From IMG/VR virus record IMGVR_UViG_2563366982_000003: a stretch of 9,589 nucleotides of DNA. One strand, given 5' to 3'. Below the pieces are notes generated by a model. The model had not been told where the DNA came from, searched no databases, and saw nothing but the letters and a program-made list of their open reading frames with translations. Positions 1-8,085 of the stretch are shown here, piece after piece (position 1 is the stretch's first letter; the number at the start of each line of letters is the position of its first letter). This DNA comes from a virus (lineage: Duplodnaviria > Heunggongvirae > Uroviricota > Caudoviricetes). The position numbers and the translations under genes are program-made.

Positions 1-131
1 TTCACCCATCGCGTCATTGTGGAAAGGCCGACATCCATAGCGCTGGCTGCATCTGCCACGGTGTAATTCTGGTCAACGACCAGTTGAGCGGATTCGCGTT
101 TAAACTCTGCGCTGAAATTTCTTTTTTTCAT
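1..131 (-). CDS. IS911-like transposase OrfA (InsN-like), N-terminal part, truncated by the window edge
   Basis: ATG at 131-129 (minus strand); translation [43 protein letters not shown]..., in a different frame from the annotated 100..798 ORF tail. Recognised from memory of IS911 orfA. Confidence 0.7.
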
Positions 132-203
132 TATGGCACCTGTGTTGTTCTGAGGTGAGCATATCACCTCTGTTCAGGTGGCCAAATTCAGTAAACCACT
201 TCA
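1..203 (-). mobile_element. IS3-family (IS911-like) insertion sequence, partial: left terminal repeat and 5' part of orfA; element continues beyond the window start
   Basis: Minus-strand sequence from 203 downward reads TGAAGTGGTTTACTGAATTTGGCCACCTGAACAGAGGTGATATGCTCACCTCAGAACAACACAGGTGCCATA-ATG, an IS3-family-type end (TG...) followed about 70 nt later by an ORF beginning [43 protein letters not shown], which I recognise as IS911 OrfA (HTH N-terminus). Boundary at 203 inferred from the TGAAGTGG terminus. Not checked against ISfinder. Confidence 0.75.
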
Positions 204-798
204 CACTGCACAGTGATGCTGTCCGGCGATCAATTATCTGGTGCAATACCACCTGCTCGTTTTTCGTCTCCCGCTGAACGCCTATTTCATCCAGGACCAG
301 CAAATCAACCCCGCAAAGCTCCTGTAAAAATTTTTCCCCGGATTTGCCGTTGTCGTAACTGTCATGCAACACGCTCATGACGTCAGACACGGTGACGATA
401 ATCACGCTGCGCCCCTTCACCATCAGCCGGTTGCCCATCGCCGCTGCAAGGTGATTTTTCCCGGTGCCGGTTTTACCGCTGAACACAAAATTCGTGCACC
501 CGGTCATCAGTTCGTCAGCTATGGATTTGGCCTGGCTCAGCGCGTATTTTTGCCCGTCGTTCTGCACCTGATAATTTGCAAACGAGCATTTGCTGTGCAG
601 AGGCTGGATGCCCGAACGATTCAGGATTTTTTCCACCCGCAACTGGCGATTCTGGCGGTTAATCTCCTCGCTGCGTTTTCGTCCTTCAGCAAGTTGCCAT
701 TCCCGCCACTCCTCCACCGTCCGGTACGGTGGAACCGACCCCTGTGGTGCAAGTCTGCGAATACGTTCAAGAACCCCAACTGCCGCAATGTTTTTCAT
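100..798 (-). CDS. DnaC-like replicative helicase loader (AAA+ ATPase); native reading frame ends near 204, the last ~35 codons (100-203) are IS-derived read-through, so the gene is 3'-truncated by the IS911-like insertion
   Basis: 232-aa ORF with Walker A ([15 protein letters not shown]) and Walker B (DLLVLDEIG) and a DnaC-like layout (...[17 protein letters not shown]...); SD-like GGGGGTG upstream of the ATG at 798; the C-terminal tail [15 protein letters not shown]... is encoded by the IS terminal repeat. DnaC homologs carry about 45 more residues after the DRR(S/T) motif. Confidence 0.75.
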
Positions 799-804
799 GA
801 CACG

Positions 805-1767
805 TCACCCCCTGAATCCCGGCGGTATTTCAGTGTCCGGTTCAGAAATGTGATTCACGCAACGCTGCGCAGGCGAACGCCCCAGGCGGATAACCAGTTC
901 ATCCCATTTTTCCCGGAGTTTTGCCGGACTCATGATGTTTTTTACCCAGAACGAATCCCGCTGGAGACGCCCAAACATTTCACAAATTTGTCTGTGAGTT
1001 CTGCCATCCAGCATCCGCATTGTGCGAACGTCATTGGCCCATGCTGTCCAGTTGGGTTCTTTCGGTCTAGTGATCTCGCCATCATAGCTGGCCGCCTGCT
1101 CGTAAAGACTCACGATTCGTCCCCAGATCCACTGTGCGCACACCAAATCTTCCTGACTTCCCCACTGGCGTTTTTTCGCACTGAACACAACCGCGTCAGG
1201 GTGTCGGGTTAAAAAATCCTGTTCAGCCGTCTGCGGGTCCGGTTGCGAAGCGTCCGGACAAGAAGATCTTTTATCTGACGGATCAGGTTTTAATACTGAC
1301 GGATCGGGGTCAATCATCGCCCCCCTAATCGGCAGTTTTTTATCAACAGTTGATCCATCAAAATTTGACGGGTCAACCGTTGAGGGGTCAATATTTGACG
1401 GGTCAACTGTTAACGGGTCATTTTTTGCCGGGCTAATTTTTCTTTTCGGTTTATATGACTCACGCGCCGCCGCCGCAGCTGCTTCGAGTTTTTCCACATT
1501 AAGCCGATAGATATTGCTTACATTACGCCCACCGACCTTACGCTCTTCCTTCGTCAGCCAGCCCTCTTTCGCCAGTTCTGCAATAGCCGATTTCACTGTG
1601 GATTCACTTCTTGCACCGATCTGACGCCGGATAGTTTCAATGGCAGGCCATGACACACCCTCGTCATTGCTGTAGTCTGCAAGACGGGCCATAACCGCCA
1701 CCCTGGATAAGATCATGCCGGTGAAGGCGCACCCTTCCCAGACAAGACCATGAAGCTTGCTGCTCAT
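805..1767 (-). CDS. Phage replication initiation protein (lambda O-like in function; N-terminal winged-HTH, internal iteron-encoded peptide repeats, C-terminal DnaT/YdaU-like domain)
   Basis: Long minus-strand ORF (track 805..1782, GTG start); I prefer the ATG at 1767, preceded by GGGGG. N-terminus LVWEGCAFTGMILSRVAVMARLADYSNDEGVSWPAIETIRRQIGARSESTVKSAIAELAKEGWL is typical of replication-initiator HTH domains. Internal DPSNIDPSTVDPSNFDGSTVD peptide repeat is encoded by DNA iterons. Stop lies 6 nt upstream of the dnaC-like ATG, the O-then-loader order of lambdoid replication modules. Confidence 0.7.
   Translation of the reverse strand: MSSKLHGLVWEGCAFTGMILSRVAVMARLADYSNDEGVSWPAIETIRRQIGARSESTVKSAIAELAKEGWLTKEERKVGGRNVSNIYRLNVEKLEAAAAAARESYKPKRKISPAKNDPLTVDPSNIDPSTVDPSNFDGSTVDKKLPIRGAMIDPDPSVLKPDPSDKRSSCPDASQPDPQTAEQDFLTRHPDAVVFSAKKRQWGSQEDLVCAQWIWGRIVSLYEQAASYDGEITRPKEPNWTAWANDVRTMRMLDGRTHRQICEMFGRLQRDSFWVKNIMSPAKLREKWDELVIRLGRSPAQRCVNHISEPDTEIPPGFRG
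1350..1439. repeat. Six tandem 15-bp iterons (consensus TTGAcGGGTCAAy-nn) inside the initiator gene: candidate phage origin of replication
   Basis: Plus-strand units: ttgatccatcaaaat / ttgacgggtcaaccg / ttgaggggtcaatat / ttgacgggtcaactg / ttaacgggtcatttt / ttgccgggctaattt (1350-1439). Each unit contains an internal dyad (TTGAC...GTCAA). Placement inside the initiator gene parallels the lambda ori iterons within O. Confidence 0.6.
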
Positions 1768-1789
1768 AAAACCCCCGAACACCGTGCTT

Positions 1790-2215
1790 TTAGTGCATCA
1801 CCACAGCATTCCCTGCCGGGCCGCCGCGATTCATCTGGTCATACAAAACAACCGCTGACGCAACAAAATCATCGACATCCTTCACCAGCCGATCCCTCCG
1901 TTCGACGATCTCACGGTAATATTCAGAACTGTGGCTGCGCATACGGGCCACCAGCAAAGGCGGCATCGCCTTTTCGATCGCCGGTAACAGAGCCTGCATT
2001 TTTTCAACAGCATCAGGGGTGTCTTTATCCAGCCAACGGAAAATTTTCTGGGTATTACGGGCCAGGGCTTCCGGATGGCTGTCGTCATACAGTTCCGGGA
2101 ACGTCATTCCCAGCTCGAAATACGCTTTGGTAATTTTCGCAGCCGGTACTTTTTCGCCGTCCGGATGCGCCCAGACATTCATCGCCATGCGGATGTGTTC
2201 ATGCTTGATTTTCAT
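1790..2215 (-). CDS. ydaT: YdaT-family protein (CII-like regulator / putative toxin family of Rac-type prophages)
   Basis: 141-aa ORF beginning MKIKHEHI..., matching my memory of the YdaT family N-terminus and size (~140 aa); start ATG overlaps the upstream gene stop (ATGA at 2212-2215), implying translational coupling with the ydaS-like gene. Confidence 0.65.
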   Translation of the reverse strand: MKIKHEHIRMAMNVWAHPDGEKVPAAKITKAYFELGMTFPELYDDSHPEALARNTQKIFRWLDKDTPDAVEKMQALLPAIEKAMPPLLVARMRSHSSEYYREIVERRDRLVKDVDDFVASAVVLYDQMNRGGPAGNAVVMH

Positions 2216-2514
2216 GAATCAACTCCATCAGATAAGCATGTACTACAATCACCTTCAGCATGAACTACATGTGTTTGCCCCAAACGAATGCCGCTCGCAT
2301 ACTCAGGCCAAATAAGCTCCCAATCATGGGGTCGTAGCTCCGCCCTACTTACTTGGCCTTCCGTCGCAGATTCGATCATAAGGGCGCGGGTTGGAGATAT
2401 AGCTGTTCGTCCAGACGCCATTTGCGATAAGTAAGATGGCGATACACCAAGTCTGGCCGCGAATTTCTTAGCATCACCAACCCTTAATGATTTAATAAAC
2501 TCTTTTAATGTCAT
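2212..2514 (-). CDS. ydaS: YdaS-like Cro-type HTH DNA-binding protein (Cro analogue of the switch)
   Basis: 100-aa ORF; HTH signature KKFAARLGVSPSYLSQMASGRTAISPTRALMIESATEGQVSRAELRP; SD GAGGAAGG 4-12 nt upstream of the ATG at 2514; divergent from the regulator gene at 2612. Confidence 0.7.
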   Translation of the reverse strand: MTLKEFIKSLRVGDAKKFAARLGVSPSYLSQMASGRTAISPTRALMIESATEGQVSRAELRPHDWELIWPEYASGIRLGQTHVVHAEGDCSTCLSDGVDS

Positions 2515-2611
2515 ACCTTCCTCGGTTTAGTGTTTTTTTGCGAGTTTAGTGTTTAATAAACCATTAAGTCAAGTATTTGCTTGTTTAGTGATTACTAAAG
2601 ATAATTACCAC
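2515..2611. promoter_or_regulatory. Divergent promoter/operator region between ydaS-like (minus) and paaR2-like (plus): repeated heptamers GTTTAGT/GTTTAAT and palindromes, candidate -35/-10 elements for both directions
   Basis: GTTTAGT at 2525-2531, 2544-2550, 2583-2589; GTTTAAT at 2551-2557 with complement AATAAAC at 2555-2561; perfect dyad TTTAGT-GATT-ACTAAA at 2584-2599. Candidate plus-strand promoter: -35 TTGCTT (2577-2582), 17-bp spacer, -10 GATAAT (2600-2605). Candidate minus-strand promoter: -35 TTGACT (complement of 2567-2572), -10 TAAACT (complement of 2543-2548). A further TTTAATAAAC copy lies at 2491-2500, inside the first codons of ydaS. Confidence 0.55.
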
Positions 2612-2983
2612 ATGCAAAAAAAAGAAATTCGCCGTTTACGTCTCAAGGAGTGGTTTAAAGATAAAACTCTGCCACCCAAAGAGAAGAGCTACCTATCTCA
2701 ACTAATGAGTGGGAGAGCCTCGTTTGGAGAAAAGGCTGCCAGAAGAATAGAGCAAACATACGGGATGCCGGAAGGGTATCTGGATGCGGAATACGCAGAA
2801 CAACCGGGGGTTTCTCCACCACATGCAGGGTTAACGTCTAATCAACTGGAATTATTGCAGATTTTTTCAGCCTTCCCTGAGGATGAGCAACGCCAGATAA
2901 TCAGCGAGTTAAAGCAGAAAAAAGAATCAATGGAAGATCTCATAGCGAGATGGATTGCGGCGCAAAAATGCCGCCGCGCCTGA
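2612..2983 (+). CDS. paaR2: HTH (XRE/cI-type) transcriptional regulator of the three-component ParE toxin-antitoxin module; occupies the cI position of the prophage switch (PaaR2-like)
   Basis: 123-aa ORF from ATG 2612 (the track's 2549 start is a GTG lying inside the operator repeats, with no SD); HTH region LSQLMSGRASFGEKAARRIEQTYGMPEGYLD; no peptidase S24 domain; directly upstream of the antitoxin/toxin pair. Symbol from memory of the E. coli O157:H7 paaR2-paaA2-parE2 system; the paralogous paaR1 module cannot be excluded without alignment. Confidence 0.6.
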   Translation: MQKKEIRRLRLKEWFKDKTLPPKEKSYLSQLMSGRASFGEKAARRIEQTYGMPEGYLDAEYAEQPGVSPPHAGLTSNQLELLQIFSAFPEDEQRQIISELKQKKESMEDLIARWIAAQKCRRA

Positions 2984-3003
2984 GTTATAAAACCGGAGGA
3001 AAC

Positions 3004-3195
3004 ATGAATAGAGCCCTTTCACCAATGGTTTCTGAATTTGAAACCATTGAACAAGAAAACAGTTACAACGAATGGCTGCGTGCGAAAGTAGCAACGAGCC
3101 TTGCAGATCCGCGCCCAGCAATTCCCCATGACGAAGTTGAGCGCAGAATGGCAGAACGCTTTGCTAAGATGCGTAAGGAACGGAGCAAGCAGTAA
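3004..3195 (+). CDS. paaA2: Small antitoxin of a ParE-family toxin (PaaA2-like, 63 aa)
   Basis: 63-aa ORF MNRALSPMVSEFETIEQENSYNEWLRAKVATSLADPRPAIPHDEVERRMAERFAKMRKERSKQ from ATG 3004 with SD GGAGGA at 2995-3000; stop TAA at 3193-3195, 1 nt before the toxin ATG. Size and operon position match the PaaA2 antitoxin as I recall it from the literature. Confidence 0.7.
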   Translation: MNRALSPMVSEFETIEQENSYNEWLRAKVATSLADPRPAIPHDEVERRMAERFAKMRKERSKQ

Positions 3196-3196
3196 A

Positions 3197-3475
3197 ATGT
3201 TACCCGTGTTATGGCTTGAAAGCGCAGATACCGACCTAGATGATATAACTAGTTATATTGCTCGTTTCGACATAGATGCGGCTGAACGCTTATGGCAGCG
3301 ATTAAGGGGTTGTGTGCTGCCGTTATCCGAACATCCGTATTTATACCCACCAAGCGACAGAGTACCTGGCTTGCGTGAGATTGTAGCCCACCCTAACTAT
3401 ATAATTCTATACCGCGTAACAACATCAAGCGTTGAAGTAGTAAACGTGATCCACGCAAGACGCCAGTTTCCCTAA
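3197..3475 (+). CDS. parE2: ParE/RelE-superfamily toxin (ParE2-like)
   Basis: 92-aa ORF from ATG 3197: MLPVLWLESADTDLDDITSYIARFDIDAAERLWQRLRGCVLPLSEHPYLYPPSDRVPGLREIVAHPNYIILYRVTTSSVEVVNVIHARRQFP, with the characteristic ParE C-terminal pattern (...YRV...V.V..H.RR..). The track's 3101 start overlaps the antitoxin and is rejected. Confidence 0.8.
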   Translation: MLPVLWLESADTDLDDITSYIARFDIDAAERLWQRLRGCVLPLSEHPYLYPPSDRVPGLREIVAHPNYIILYRVTTSSVEVVNVIHARRQFP

Positions 3476-3766: not shown

Positions 3767-3919
3767 ATGGATACGCTCAATCTTGGCAACAACGAATCTC
3801 TGGTATGCGGTGTGTTCCCTAACCAGGACGGCACCTTCACCGCGATGACGTATACCAAAAGTAAAACGTTTAAAACCGCAGCTGGTGCGCATCGCTGGTT
3901 AGCAAGAAACACTGACTGA
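3767..3919 (+). CDS. ydfA: YdfA-like small prophage protein (first gene of the dicB-type operon)
   Basis: 50-aa ORF from ATG 3767 (MDTLNLGNNESLVCGVFPNQDGTFTAMTYTKSKTFKTAAGAHRWLARNTD) with SD GAGG at 3758-3761; the track's longer 3680 start lacks an SD. Size and position match Qin ydfA as I recall it. Confidence 0.6.
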   Translation: MDTLNLGNNESLVCGVFPNQDGTFTAMTYTKSKTFKTAAGAHRWLARNTD

Positions 3920-3930
3920 TGAGGTTGACG

Positions 3931-4269
3931 ATGGAATTTAAAGATTTACCTCCTTCAATCCAGGAGATTGCAGCACACACACTTCGTCATCGTCTGAACG
4001 AACTTGAATTGGAATCGGTAACAAAAAAAGACACTGATAATATGGCTCGCAATGTGCGCGATGCGTTTACTGGGCTGTTTTCAGATACAGCTTTAAATAT
4101 CCATGGCACAGAGGATACAGCAAAACAATTTGCAGAAAAAGAAGTGGAAGATCCCAGTTCAAAGAGCCAGAAACAGCCAAACAACCATGAAATTAACGAA
4201 CTGCTTCTGGCAACAGGCTTCATAAATATTAACGAATATGAACGCCGTAAAAAAATGTTATCTGATTAA
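3931..4269 (+). CDS. Hypothetical prophage protein of the dicB-type operon (possibly the intact counterpart of Qin ydfB plus ydfC)
   Basis: 112-aa ORF from ATG 3931 (MEFKDLPPSIQEIAAHTLRHRLNELELESV...) with SD GAGG 3921-3924; an alternative ATG at 3919 overlaps the ydfA-like stop. No recognisable domain; acidic/Lys-rich C-terminal half. Confidence 0.5.
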   Translation: MEFKDLPPSIQEIAAHTLRHRLNELELESVTKKDTDNMARNVRDAFTGLFSDTALNIHGTEDTAKQFAEKEVEDPSSKSQKQPNNHEINELLLATGFININEYERRKKMLSD

Positions 4270-4452
4270 TCCATCAAGATATCTTTTTAGCATCAGCGTT
4301 TCTACGTTATTAAAACCATCAGATTTTAACATAGCTTCGATTCGCTGATTTAAATTGCCAACTAACTGTTGATACTGAGTAGATGGAAGCATGTGTACCA
4401 GCTCCTTGAGAACACAATAACATGCACCAAGTTTTAACTCCTGCTCTGACAT
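4258..4452 (-). CDS. Candidate small protein gene (64 aa) antisense to the dicB-operon transcript, in the gap between the ydfB/C-like gene and DicF
   Basis: ATG at 4452-4450 preceded by a consensus SD (GGAGGA-taaa-ATG); translation MSEQELKLGACYCVLKELVHMLPSTQYQQLVGNLNQRIEAMLKSDGFNNVETLMLKRYLDGLIR; AT-rich codon usage (TTA, AGA, CTT). No plus-strand ORF of comparable quality exists between 4270 and 4790. No homolog recognised. Confidence 0.35.
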   Translation of the reverse strand: MSEQELKLGACYCVLKELVHMLPSTQYQQLVGNLNQRIEAMLKSDGFNNVETLMLKRYLDGLIR

Positions 4453-4791
4453 TTTATCCTCCATTGAGGTTACTGGTTGAGAATGGAAACCTCTCGTGAC
4501 AGCGTGTGGTCGTGCGCCGGACACGGATAAGAATCCGGCACTGACAGTTTACTGAAAGGATATTTCCCTGAAAAGTCAGACCATAACGCGAAAGCGTACG
4601 GCGAGGTAGCTGGTTCATAGATAGCCTGTCGTTAAATTTTCGTCGACCGTGCGCTTCCGGTTGTGGCAATCCGCGAAATGGCGCGGCGGTAAGTATGGCG
4701 GGGTTATTCCTTCCCCCGTTGAGGACACCGGGTTGTCAGGTTGACCATACGCTTAAGTGACAACCCCGCTGCAACGCCCTCTGTTATCAAT

Positions 4792-4848
4792 TTTCTGGTG
4801 ACGTTTGGCGGTATCAGTTTTACTCCGTGACTGCTCTGCCGCCCTTTT
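4792..4848 (+). ncRNA. dicF: DicF small regulatory RNA (ftsZ-targeting sRNA of Qin-type prophages), including its 3' stem and U-tract
   Basis: Sequence TTTCTGGTGACGTTTGGCGGTATCAGTTTTACTCCGTGACTGCTCUGCCGCCC + TTTTT matches my memory of the 53-nt DicF RNA; GGCGG (4807-4811) / CCGCC (4839-4843) pairing followed by a T-run gives a rho-independent 3' end; lies 180 nt upstream of the dicB ATG as in the Qin dicB operon. Exact 5' end not determinable from sequence. Confidence 0.75.
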
Positions 4849-5027: not shown

Positions 5028-5216
5028 ATGGAAACGTTATTACCAAACGTTAATACGTCTGAAGGTTGTTTTGATATTGGTGTTCTGCTCAGTAACCGGG
5101 AGTTTACTGAAGATGCCATTAATATGAGGAAATATGAGCCTTATCTGCTCAATGATAATTCCATACTTTCCCGAATTGCTCTTCTTGAACTTGGTATTTT
5201 CGGAGAGCGTCAATGA
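5028..5216 (+). CDS. dicB: Cell-division inhibitor DicB
   Basis: 62-aa ORF METLLPNVNTSEGCFDIGVLLSNREFTEDAINMRKYEPYLLNDNSILSRIALLELGIFGERQ; matches DicB in length and N-terminal sequence (M-TLLPNVNTSEGCF...) as recalled; SD GAGGA 5016-5020; follows DicF. Confidence 0.85.
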   Translation: METLLPNVNTSEGCFDIGVLLSNREFTEDAINMRKYEPYLLNDNSILSRIALLELGIFGERQ

Positions 5217-5493: not shown

Positions 5494-6055
5494 ATGAGCA
5501 CTGATAAAGAAGAATTTGCGCTATATTGCGAAGCAAAAAATGACAAAGTCAGAAAACGTCTGGGAATTAAAGGTGGTTTTTACTGGACTACAGCAAAAAA
5601 ATTATCTGTTGCCATCTCCCGCTGCATTACCGCAATGGATGACAACGATTATGATGAAGACGACTTTAAAAAACCCGTTCGCGTCCATTTACCCGTTGTG
5701 AATGACCTTCCACCTGAAGGCGTGTTTGATACCGAATTCTGCAACCGATACGAAAAAGGCGGGGAAGATGGCATTACAATGGTATTTATCGCGCCCTCTC
5801 CCTCCGTGCAGGAGAAACCAGCCAGTACTGACAATACCAACGTCAACGGCGAAGACATGACGGAGATTGAGGAGAATATGCTCCTGCCGGTTTCTGGTCA
5901 GGAGCTGCCCATTCGCTGGCTTGCGCAACACAGCAGCGAAAAACCAGTAACGCACGTTGCACGGGAAGAACTTCAGGCATTACATATAGCACGGGCGGAA
6001 GAACTGCCGGCTGTTACTGCCCTGGCCATTTCTCACAAAACAAAGCTGCTCGACC
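5494..6055 (+). pseudogene. RecE-like (exodeoxyribonuclease VIII family) prophage exonuclease gene, N-terminal fragment, interrupted by an IS21-family insertion
   Basis: ORF from ATG 5494 (SD GAGG 5482-5485); the track ORF 5494..6105 reads 50 nt into the IS terminal repeat before a stop. Deleting 6056-8193 (IS plus one repeat copy) rejoins this frame exactly to the frame open from 8193 to the window end (...HKTKLLD|[24 protein letters not shown]...). Assignment to the RecE family is from recalled similarity of the N-terminal region and the synteny after dicB/ydfD. Confidence 0.6.
6049..6055. repeat. Left copy of the 7-bp direct repeat (CTCGACC) flanking the IS21-family element: putative target-site duplication
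   Basis: CTCGACC at 6049-6055 immediately before the IS terminus TGTCA; identical heptamer at 8187-8193 immediately after the other terminus. Confidence 0.55.
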
Positions 6056-6115
6056 TGTCAACGCCACGATGTTTGACCGTTATTTGCCATTTTCATGCCC
6101 GCTAAGATACTTTCG

Positions 6116-8085
<1,970 letters not shown>

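Follow-up and report, generated by a model that had tools for sequence, protein, structure and literature searches.

The window analysed here is a stretch of 9,589 nucleotides (nt) from a virus of the Caudoviricetes (IMG/VR record IMGVR_UViG_2563366982_000003). Its minus strand carries an open reading frame (ORF) of 64 codons, referred to as ORF64, which lies on the strand opposite to the genes dicF and dicB and is preceded by a conserved leader of about 90 nt. The features of the locus are collected in Table 1. The comparisons described below indicate that ORF64 is a genuine gene and that it very probably occupies a slot whose content is exchanged between prophages behind a constant structured leader; its product may be a distant relative of the RpoS anti-adaptor IraP.

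A first-pass annotation, made from the letters of the window, had described the ORF, its start region GGAGGA-taaa-ATG and the 12-nt overlap with the convergent gene correctly. It was also right about the AT-rich codon usage (GC content 35.9%, 32% at third codon positions, compared with 49% for the window), about the start of DicF (given as about 4792, one nucleotide off the Rfam match) and about the lack of a credible plus-strand ORF between 4269 and 4792, where only ORFs of 31-36 amino acids (aa) occur. Its description of ORF64 as unannotated and without homolog did not hold. The exact coding sequence is already called by PGAP/RefSeq as WP_001295058.1, "hypothetical protein", in a 100%-identical genome, in ATCC 25922, in ST131 and in O104:H4; the sequence is found on at least 1000 contigs under the title "MULTISPECIES: hypothetical protein [Enterobacteriaceae]". 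Furthermore, ORF64 matches the family PHROG 4987 over its full length (E 3.1e-49, residues 1-64 of 64), and a small protein family with a distant likeness to IraP exists. ORF64 is thus already catalogued, as a hypothetical protein and as a member of a PHROG with no assigned function.

Table 1. Features of the ORF64 locus, in coordinates of the window
Feature	Position	Strand	Remarks
ORF64 (ATG, 64 codons, stop)	4258..4452	-	WP_001295058.1, PHROG 4987; predicted three-helix protein; start codon ATG at 4450-4452
Shine-Dalgarno sequence GGAGGA	4457..4462	-	4 nt (taaa) 5' of the ATG; 3' arm of H3
Conserved ~90-nt 5' leader, H1-H2-H3	4450..4539	-	ends at the ATG; covariance model R1, 91.2 bits, E 2e-18
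H3	4458..4489	-	anti-Shine-Dalgarno UUUCCAUU (4482-4489) pairs with AAUGGAGG (4458-4465); RNAalifold consensus
H2	4490..4509	-	conserved in structure only; window allele with two A.A mismatches
H1, 5' hairpin GCCGGAUUCUUAUCCGUGUCCGGC	4516..4539	-	invariant in all lineages including K-12
Putative -10 TAAACT	4546..4551	-	-12..-7 from the first base of H1
Weak -35 TTTTCA	4569-4574	-	
Mosaic segment replacing ydfB-ydfC of K-12 Qin	3911..4510	.	blastn against K-12 and alignment; holds ORF64 and the 3' two-thirds of the leader
Convergent 116-aa ORF, early-left operon	3919..4269	+	12-nt 3' overlap with ORF64
DicF small RNA gene	4793..4844	+	Rfam, 76.7 bits; neighbour, outside the cassette
dicB	5028-5216		region also flanked by a DUF1482 gene and a DUF1391 (ydfA-like) gene

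Comparison between genera argues strongly for translation of ORF64. The frame is kept without insertions or deletions in E. coli, Salmonella and Citrobacter, with protein identities of 86% (Salmonella) and 72% (Citrobacter). The ratio of nonsynonymous to synonymous substitution rates (dN/dS, Nei-Gojobori) was 0.27, 0.31 and 0.22 for the three genus pairs and thus the lowest among the stop-free frames. In the other frames values of 0.31-2.3 were obtained; the only antisense frame that comes close (0.31-0.41) contains stop codons. Remote homologs of 67 aa in Edwardsiella tarda (45% identity) and of 65 aa in Salmonella enterica (36%) begin at the same methionine, and in all ORF64 lineages a Shine-Dalgarno (SD) sequence stands at canonical spacing from it. 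ORF64 is therefore almost certainly a real protein-coding gene, because it is conserved, is under purifying selection and has a conserved start and a dedicated leader. The first-pass annotation had considered that it could be a real small protein, had proposed a homolog search and a dN/dS test, and had named a disrupted frame or a missing SD in orthologous regions as counter-evidence. Homologs across genera and purifying selection were found, and both the frame and the SD are kept.

The family is small. When 1.84 billion representative proteins were scanned exhaustively with HMMER, only five representatives emerged, the two remote homologs among them. No copy of the protein was present in GTDB representative genomes, INPHARED phages or PLSDB plasmids, and scans of metagenome and IMG/VR proteins added only identical copies and one locus resembling that of the Edwardsiella protein (P0128). 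Among 5426 complete E. coli genomes, 152 contain ORF64; the identity is at least 99% in almost every case, and at least 148 of the 152 copies are intact. The backbone of the window matches 4318 genomes. Three of the 152 genomes fall into an identity band of 90-95%. The one of them that was inspected, E. coli GN05476 (locus L045, 1501-1684), has an 11-nt deletion near the 3' end of ORF64, which shifts the frame at about codon 57. Strain 95-3322 has an allele with a synonymous change, and there PGAP happens to leave the gene uncalled.

When the upstream DNA was aligned across five lineages, the ~90 nt before the ATG turned out to be far better conserved than the protein itself. This leader can be folded into three hairpins, H1, H2 and H3. 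The consensus RNA of H1 reads GCCGGAU.CUUA.C.GUGUCCGGC. In H3, an anti-SD (RNA form CUCCAU(U)) pairs with the SD. An alignment of 28 distinct leaders made with MAFFT had 90.7% of its cells paired, compared with 27-39% in slid controls, and its covariation (0.145 vs 0.067) was reached in none of 500 shuffles. H2 showed compensatory changes in six of its seven pairs in this alignment. The picture was the same for 36 distinct rows aligned to the covariance model (92.9% of cells paired vs 26-45% in slid controls; covariation 0.161 vs 0.061, again reached in none of 500 shuffles). Overall, 92.9% and 83.5% of cells were paired in the model-aligned sets, with double changes at nine pairs. The G.U pairs, among them an invariant U.G in H1, are compatible only with the strand that is sense for the ORF. 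In predicted ensembles the SD has an unpaired probability of ~0.2 for the leaders of the window and of Salmonella and of 0.02 for the Edwardsiella type. A scan against Rfam 15 returned no family for the leader even at E<=10, only DicF.

The H3 counts of the MAFFT and 36-row sets are biased and as such count against our interpretation, since the first leader collection had required the pattern CTCCA...TGGAGG. As a control for this bias, the genomes were rescanned with H1 only, and a set of 24 sequences was assembled from these loci and from loci found via protein homology. In this set, which is free of selection for the H3 pattern, H3 was 89% paired, and the pair 58-81 within it was AU in 13 and UA in 11 of the 24 sequences. 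The H1-only rescan also uncovered a further leader subtype, in which H3 is formed by CUCCU:AGGAG. By these comparisons, the last hairpin of the leader sequesters the GGAGG SD through an anti-SD, and the pairing is kept by compensatory change. The "consensus SD" of the first-pass annotation is thus real as a motif, but it doubles as the 3' arm of a conserved sequestering hairpin and therefore signals regulated rather than simply strong translation.

The leader can also persist without a gene. In the Qin prophage of K-12, H1, H2 and the anti-SD are kept between ydfC and dicF (locus L003, 2546-2631, minus strand; 29 bits), with neither SD nor cargo, and many other prophages have likewise been left with these three elements alone. 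What is called the "long untranslated region" ahead of dicF in K-12 therefore appears to be, in part, a cassette remnant. A K-12 3'-end dataset (supplements of PMC7815308) held no minus-strand feature near this remnant.

An upstream promoter search had been proposed by the first-pass annotation as well, with a mixed outcome. A scan for consensus promoters and terminators found nothing upstream of ORF64 or in the homologous loci, and no intrinsic terminator 3' of ORF64; both results speak against a self-contained transcription unit. A -10 element became visible when loci were compared by offset. For this comparison the 40 nt upstream of H1 were grouped into 14 families with less than 75% identity between families. 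In 8 of the 14, the motif TAnnnT stands exactly at -12..-7 relative to the first base of H1, whereas at every other offset it is found in 0-2 families. Three further families have near-matches at this position (GATACT, TATAAC, TATAGG), and an extended TGn is present in five families. We therefore rather favour a sigma-70 promoter belonging to the cassette itself, with the -10 at 4546-4551. The ORF64 mRNA is inferred to start at the G of 4539, which would make H1 a 5'-terminal hairpin; in ATCC 25922 this base corresponds to CP009072.1:3995707 (minus strand).

The same leader is not restricted to ORF64. At least 14 unrelated families of small ORFs were found behind it, with the junction lying exactly at the ATG; the loci fetched encode 46 distinct cargo proteins of 30-112 aa, which fall into 14 BLASTP families and are all joined at the ATG, and the H1-only scan added further cargo types. 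One leader with many unrelated ORFs at its ATG very probably means, judged from these junctions, that this position is a swappable small-gene slot. The DNA 5' of the leader is 80-95% conserved between cargo types, and 3' of the cargo homology resumes at variable offsets. With at least 80% coverage the leader is present in 960 of the 5426 complete E. coli genomes (~18%), including O157:H7, in up to four copies per genome. In Salmonella loci two leader-cargo cassettes stand in tandem, one with ORF64 and one with a 69-aa protein beginning MPTKPV (L006, L007 and L009, 5913-6003 and 6602-6690). Elsewhere these Salmonella loci contain arrays of C4 antisense RNA and IsrK with Ash-family genes.

The cargos give few hints of function. 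Scanned against PHROGs, they matched families with no assigned function (phrog_4274, 10133, 17494, 8894, 9414) or nothing; one cargo showed a faint, sub-threshold likeness to GhoS and another to Lar. No defence model of PADLOC matched ORF64, the 116-aa ORF or five other cargos. Some other cargos had looked IraP-like by eye, a suspicion to which Pfam lends no support. One cargo family consists of proline-rich peptides of 30-33 aa (MLINQFGDSDRPMPDGQVPYRPAPSPRPPSKP and variants, e.g. in L151, L162 and L121), which we take to be reminiscent of ribosome- or DnaK-targeting peptides.

For the ORF64 family itself the most consistent hint concerns IraP (YaiB; PF10796, PDB 8GKV), a protein that blocks the RssB-mediated delivery of RpoS to ClpXP. 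Like IraP, the ORF64 protein is small, all-helical and enterobacterial. PF10796 is the top Pfam match for five of six family members, which share only 36-45% identity. The Edwardsiella protein P0128 scores 24.5 bits and thereby exceeds the cut-off of 23.2 (residues 3-65 aligned to profile positions 20-83); it is named IraP at NCBI, where two members of the family bear this name. When the family was compared with an IraP alignment by hhalign, residues 13-64 of ORF64 aligned to residues 31-83 of IraP with E 4e-4 and a probability of 35%. The score of 24.4 was not attained by any of 400 column shuffles (mean 10.7, maximum 20). AlphaFold2 models point in the same direction: predicted helices comprise residues 3-20, 24-44 and 49-62 of ORF64 (mean confidence, pLDDT, 80) and residues 2-38, 42-58 and 67-82 of IraP (pLDDT 79), and both breaks between helices fall together when the offset of +18 from hhalign is applied. 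Taken together, this weak but consistent evidence from profiles and models makes homology of ORF64 to approximately residues 19-83 of IraP fairly probable.

Several observations weigh against this assignment. ORF64 itself reaches only 14.4 bits on PF10796, below the cut-off of 23.2, and has no match in NCBIfam (cut-off of the IraP model NF007598, 78). BLASTP of ORF64 against K-12 IraP returned nothing, and a search of PDB sequences with the family hidden Markov model did not retrieve the IraP entry 8GKV. In fold searches, too, IraP was not ranked. The score of 24.2 bits of a Citrobacter homolog (P0006, 103 aa) is inflated by an N-terminal extension that derives from the leader. Moreover, ORF64 has 64 aa compared with 86 aa of IraP and, unlike IraP, it is prophage-borne, has its own leader and is not located beside phoA. 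It starts at the equivalent of residue ~19 and is devoid of the first ~18 residues of IraP. The N-terminal coiled coil of IraP (residues 1-35) was proposed to contact RssB, and the mutation L9S reduces its activity (PMC4428439). The part of the coiled coil holding L9 is the one that ORF64 does not have. It is rather doubtful that ORF64 acts as an RssB anti-adaptor.

A possible alternative is that ORF64 is a real cargo and that the likeness to IraP merely reflects convergence among small amphipathic helical proteins. ORF64 would then have another role of the kind usual for variable small genes of prophages, for example in anti-defence, in superinfection exclusion or against another target of host takeover. 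Such an explanation would account for ORF64 staying under every curated IraP threshold and for the missing pairwise and structural matches to IraP, and the other cargos in the slot, which are unrelated and have no assigned function (apart from the faint GhoS and Lar likenesses), fit it as well. Yet convergence does not easily explain why IraP is consistently the top Pfam match among members of such low mutual identity, why one member exceeds the gathering score, why the hhalign score exceeds all 400 shuffles and why the helix boundaries agree in a register derived from sequence. The PADLOC result likewise gives no sign of a defence-related role. We consider the convergent explanation, and with it one of these other roles, somewhat unlikely.

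The interpretation that we prefer, with a probability of roughly 0.6, is that ORF64 is the cargo of a regulated cassette and encodes a mini-IraP. ORF64 would be carried in a self-contained cassette of Rac/Qin-type lambdoid prophages of Enterobacteriaceae, placed opposite the early-left (ydfA-dicF-dicB) operon. Transcription from the sigma-70 promoter would begin at 4539, the first base of H1, and yield an independent mRNA convergent to the dicB operon. Sequestration of the SD in H3 would keep translation low until some factor or condition opens this hairpin. The product, a three-helix protein, would most likely bind a host protein, for which the RpoS adaptor RssB is the first candidate, and by this the prophage could tune the stress response of its host.

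A quite different possibility is that the element works mainly as RNA, with convergent or antisense transcription disturbing the ydfA-dicF-dicB transcript or the processing of DicF and the peptide being secondary. It would agree with this that the cassette, always opposed to the early-left operon, overlaps the convergent gene at its 3' end, that no terminator follows the cargo, so that antisense run-on is possible, and that K-12 retains H1 and H2 without any cargo. However, the frame evolves under purifying selection at the protein level, and for a pure RNA role there would be no sense in conserving the SD, its spacing and the start codon or in joining every cargo exactly at the ATG. In addition, the cassette also exists where DicF is absent. 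The first-pass annotation had noted that the ORF lies antisense to the DicF precursor region and had considered an antisense RNA, which the convergent geometry would allow; as a defining feature, the link to DicF is not supported, since the same gene and leader occur in Salmonella elements without DicF. A role mainly as RNA seems very unlikely to us. The properties of a type I toxin-antitoxin system, a small hydrophobic or membrane toxin with an antisense small RNA encoded in cis or trans, were not found either: ORF64 is amphipathic and soluble-looking and is modelled as a three-helix bundle, and no antitoxin small RNA was identified.

DicF could nevertheless touch ORF64 in a more direct way. 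The 3' half of DicF (4815-4838, plus strand) is complementary to codons 2-8 of ORF64 (4428-4449, minus strand) over 8 base pairs and then 11 base pairs, separated by a one-base bulge; the candidate pairing sequences are CAGAGCAG and CUGCUCUG. This half of DicF is the region that pairs with the ribosome binding site of ftsZ (PMC5069750). RNAduplex gave -29.2 kcal/mol for the interaction, an energy as low as in 0.23% of dinucleotide shuffles, and ORF64 is the strongest of 24 cargo start regions in this respect (next -23.1). On the other hand, 4.4% of all 40-nt windows of the sequence pair with DicF equally well (-29.2 kcal/mol or lower), and a gap-penalised alignment score of DicF and ORF64 had no significance. 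The complementarity between DicF and codons 2-8 is thus suggestive only. DicF as an opener or repressor of the leader was considered and rejected, as the duplex energy with the whole leader was no better than for shuffled sequences (p ~0.36).

One may go further and combine these elements. An undescribed class of cis-regulatory RNA would head the slot in DicF-type prophages, the mini-IraP would bind RssB (or the host IraP) and reset RpoS proteolysis in lysogens, and DicF from the derepressed early operon would shut ORF64 off via codons 2-8, so that the state of the prophage would be linked to the general stress response. As a whole this scenario is improbable.

Two further explanations were weighed against the cassette with a mini-IraP. 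ORF64 could be the decayed 3' remnant of a longer IraP-like gene of ~90-100 aa and thus a pseudogene in E. coli. This possibility was raised by P0006 and P0004 (91 aa), predictions from Citrobacter and a metagenome that extend upstream in frame, and by a gain of ~10 bits in the IraP match when the extension is included. But the extension is translated non-coding leader, common to unrelated cargos; upstream of the gene in Salmonella the frame is closed by a stop codon, and the E. coli counterpart of the extension lies in a different frame. The remote homologs have 65-67 aa counted from the same methionine, with canonical SD spacing in all lineages, and decay of a longer gene is hence highly improbable. 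The N-terminally extended "full-length IraP" was rejected for the same reason, its extension being merely the leader translated in frame. That ORF64 is a chance ORF in AT-rich DNA, as its shortness, its low GC content and the lack of a strong Pfam match might suggest, is practically refuted by the conservation, the dN/dS values, the start, the leader and the PHROG and RefSeq entries.

The cassette can be compared with three known types of system. Lambdoid prophages carry morons or lysogenic-conversion genes such as bor, lom and rexAB of lambda. ORF64 resembles these in being an AT-rich extra gene with a presumed promoter of its own, placed within an operon in an orientation independent of it and variable between similar prophages; an atypical GC content (35.9% vs 49%) and presence/absence polymorphism in a conserved backbone, both regarded as marks of a moron, apply to it. 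It differs in that promoter and leader are conserved while the coding sequence is exchanged at the ATG, and in that no terminator was found. Variable-cargo hotspots of mobile elements, such as integron cassettes and the defence hotspots of P2 and P4, likewise combine a fixed slot and conserved flanks with many unrelated small genes. For the ORF64 slot, however, no attC-like recombination site, no link to an integrase and no PADLOC match was seen, and here the conserved flank is a transcribed leader. SD-sequestering leaders that are opened in trans or by a condition include the rpoS leader with DsrA and RprA, the lambda cIII mRNA and RNA thermometers. The leader of ORF64 shares with them a covarying anti-SD:SD hairpin just 5' of the start codon, in which the SD is predicted to be mostly paired. 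The pchA leader is opened by DicF (PMC7873438). In contrast to these examples, the ORF64 leader has no Rfam match, and the predicted pairing of DicF with the whole leader is no better than with shuffled sequences.

In the open-access literature we found no description of the IraP likeness, of the three-hairpin leader with its fixed -10 or of the hypervariable slot, although an earlier account outside open access is possible. Nor did it contain a paper on WP_001295058 or on the 13-mers of the leader, or a mention of an antisense cassette in the papers on dicBF. If our interpretation is correct, about one sixth of the complete E. coli genomes carry a promoter-plus-leader module, often in several copies, which puts changing small proteins under one shared translational control. 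A single RNA element would then be a handle for finding and testing dozens of small prophage proteins. One of the cargos would represent a relative of an RpoS anti-adaptor that has spread horizontally, and control of the stress response by a prophage could be tested in ATCC 25922, ST131 and O104:H4. In K-12, the "long untranslated region" upstream of dicF would be explained in part as the remnant of a decapitated cassette.

The surroundings of ORF64 differ between lineages. In the window, a mosaic segment takes the place of ydfB-ydfC of K-12 Qin; from 4511 on, the sequence is ~92% identical to the region upstream of dicF, to dicF and to dicB of K-12. The Salmonella ORF64 loci belong to an element with exonuclease VIII, Ash-family genes and C4/IsrK RNAs and without DicF, and a second Salmonella type is found in a Cox/Int element. 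In Edwardsiella the homolog is located between xis and the repressor of a lambdoid prophage. In all contexts of the family the gene runs opposite to the neighbouring early genes and at its 3' end abuts or overlaps a convergent gene. The convergent 116-aa ORF of the window is probably a real gene as well, judged by its frame, which is kept relative to a 119-aa homolog in Salmonella with a dN/dS of 0.39 in both halves; PGAP annotates only 3931-4081 of it, as a partial pseudogene.

The remainder of the window holds some further features. An IS21-family element at 6116-8085 (minus strand; IstA 6913-8085, IstB 6116-6916) splits the gene of RecE/exonuclease VIII, whose N-terminal fragment lies at 5494-6105; the gene is intact in the otherwise identical genome NZ_CM142675.1. 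In the matching RefSeq genome, the annotation of a gene for a DnaC/IstB-like replication ATPase (100-798, minus strand) records a frameshift, and the prophage is probably defective. Between the repressor region and ydfA, a PaaA2/ParE-type toxin-antitoxin pair is encoded on the plus strand (2950-3195 and 3197-3475; RefSeq label RelB/RelE-ParE). It is preceded, within the region 2549-3475, by a 144-aa ORF that has no Pfam match and is possibly a third-component regulator.

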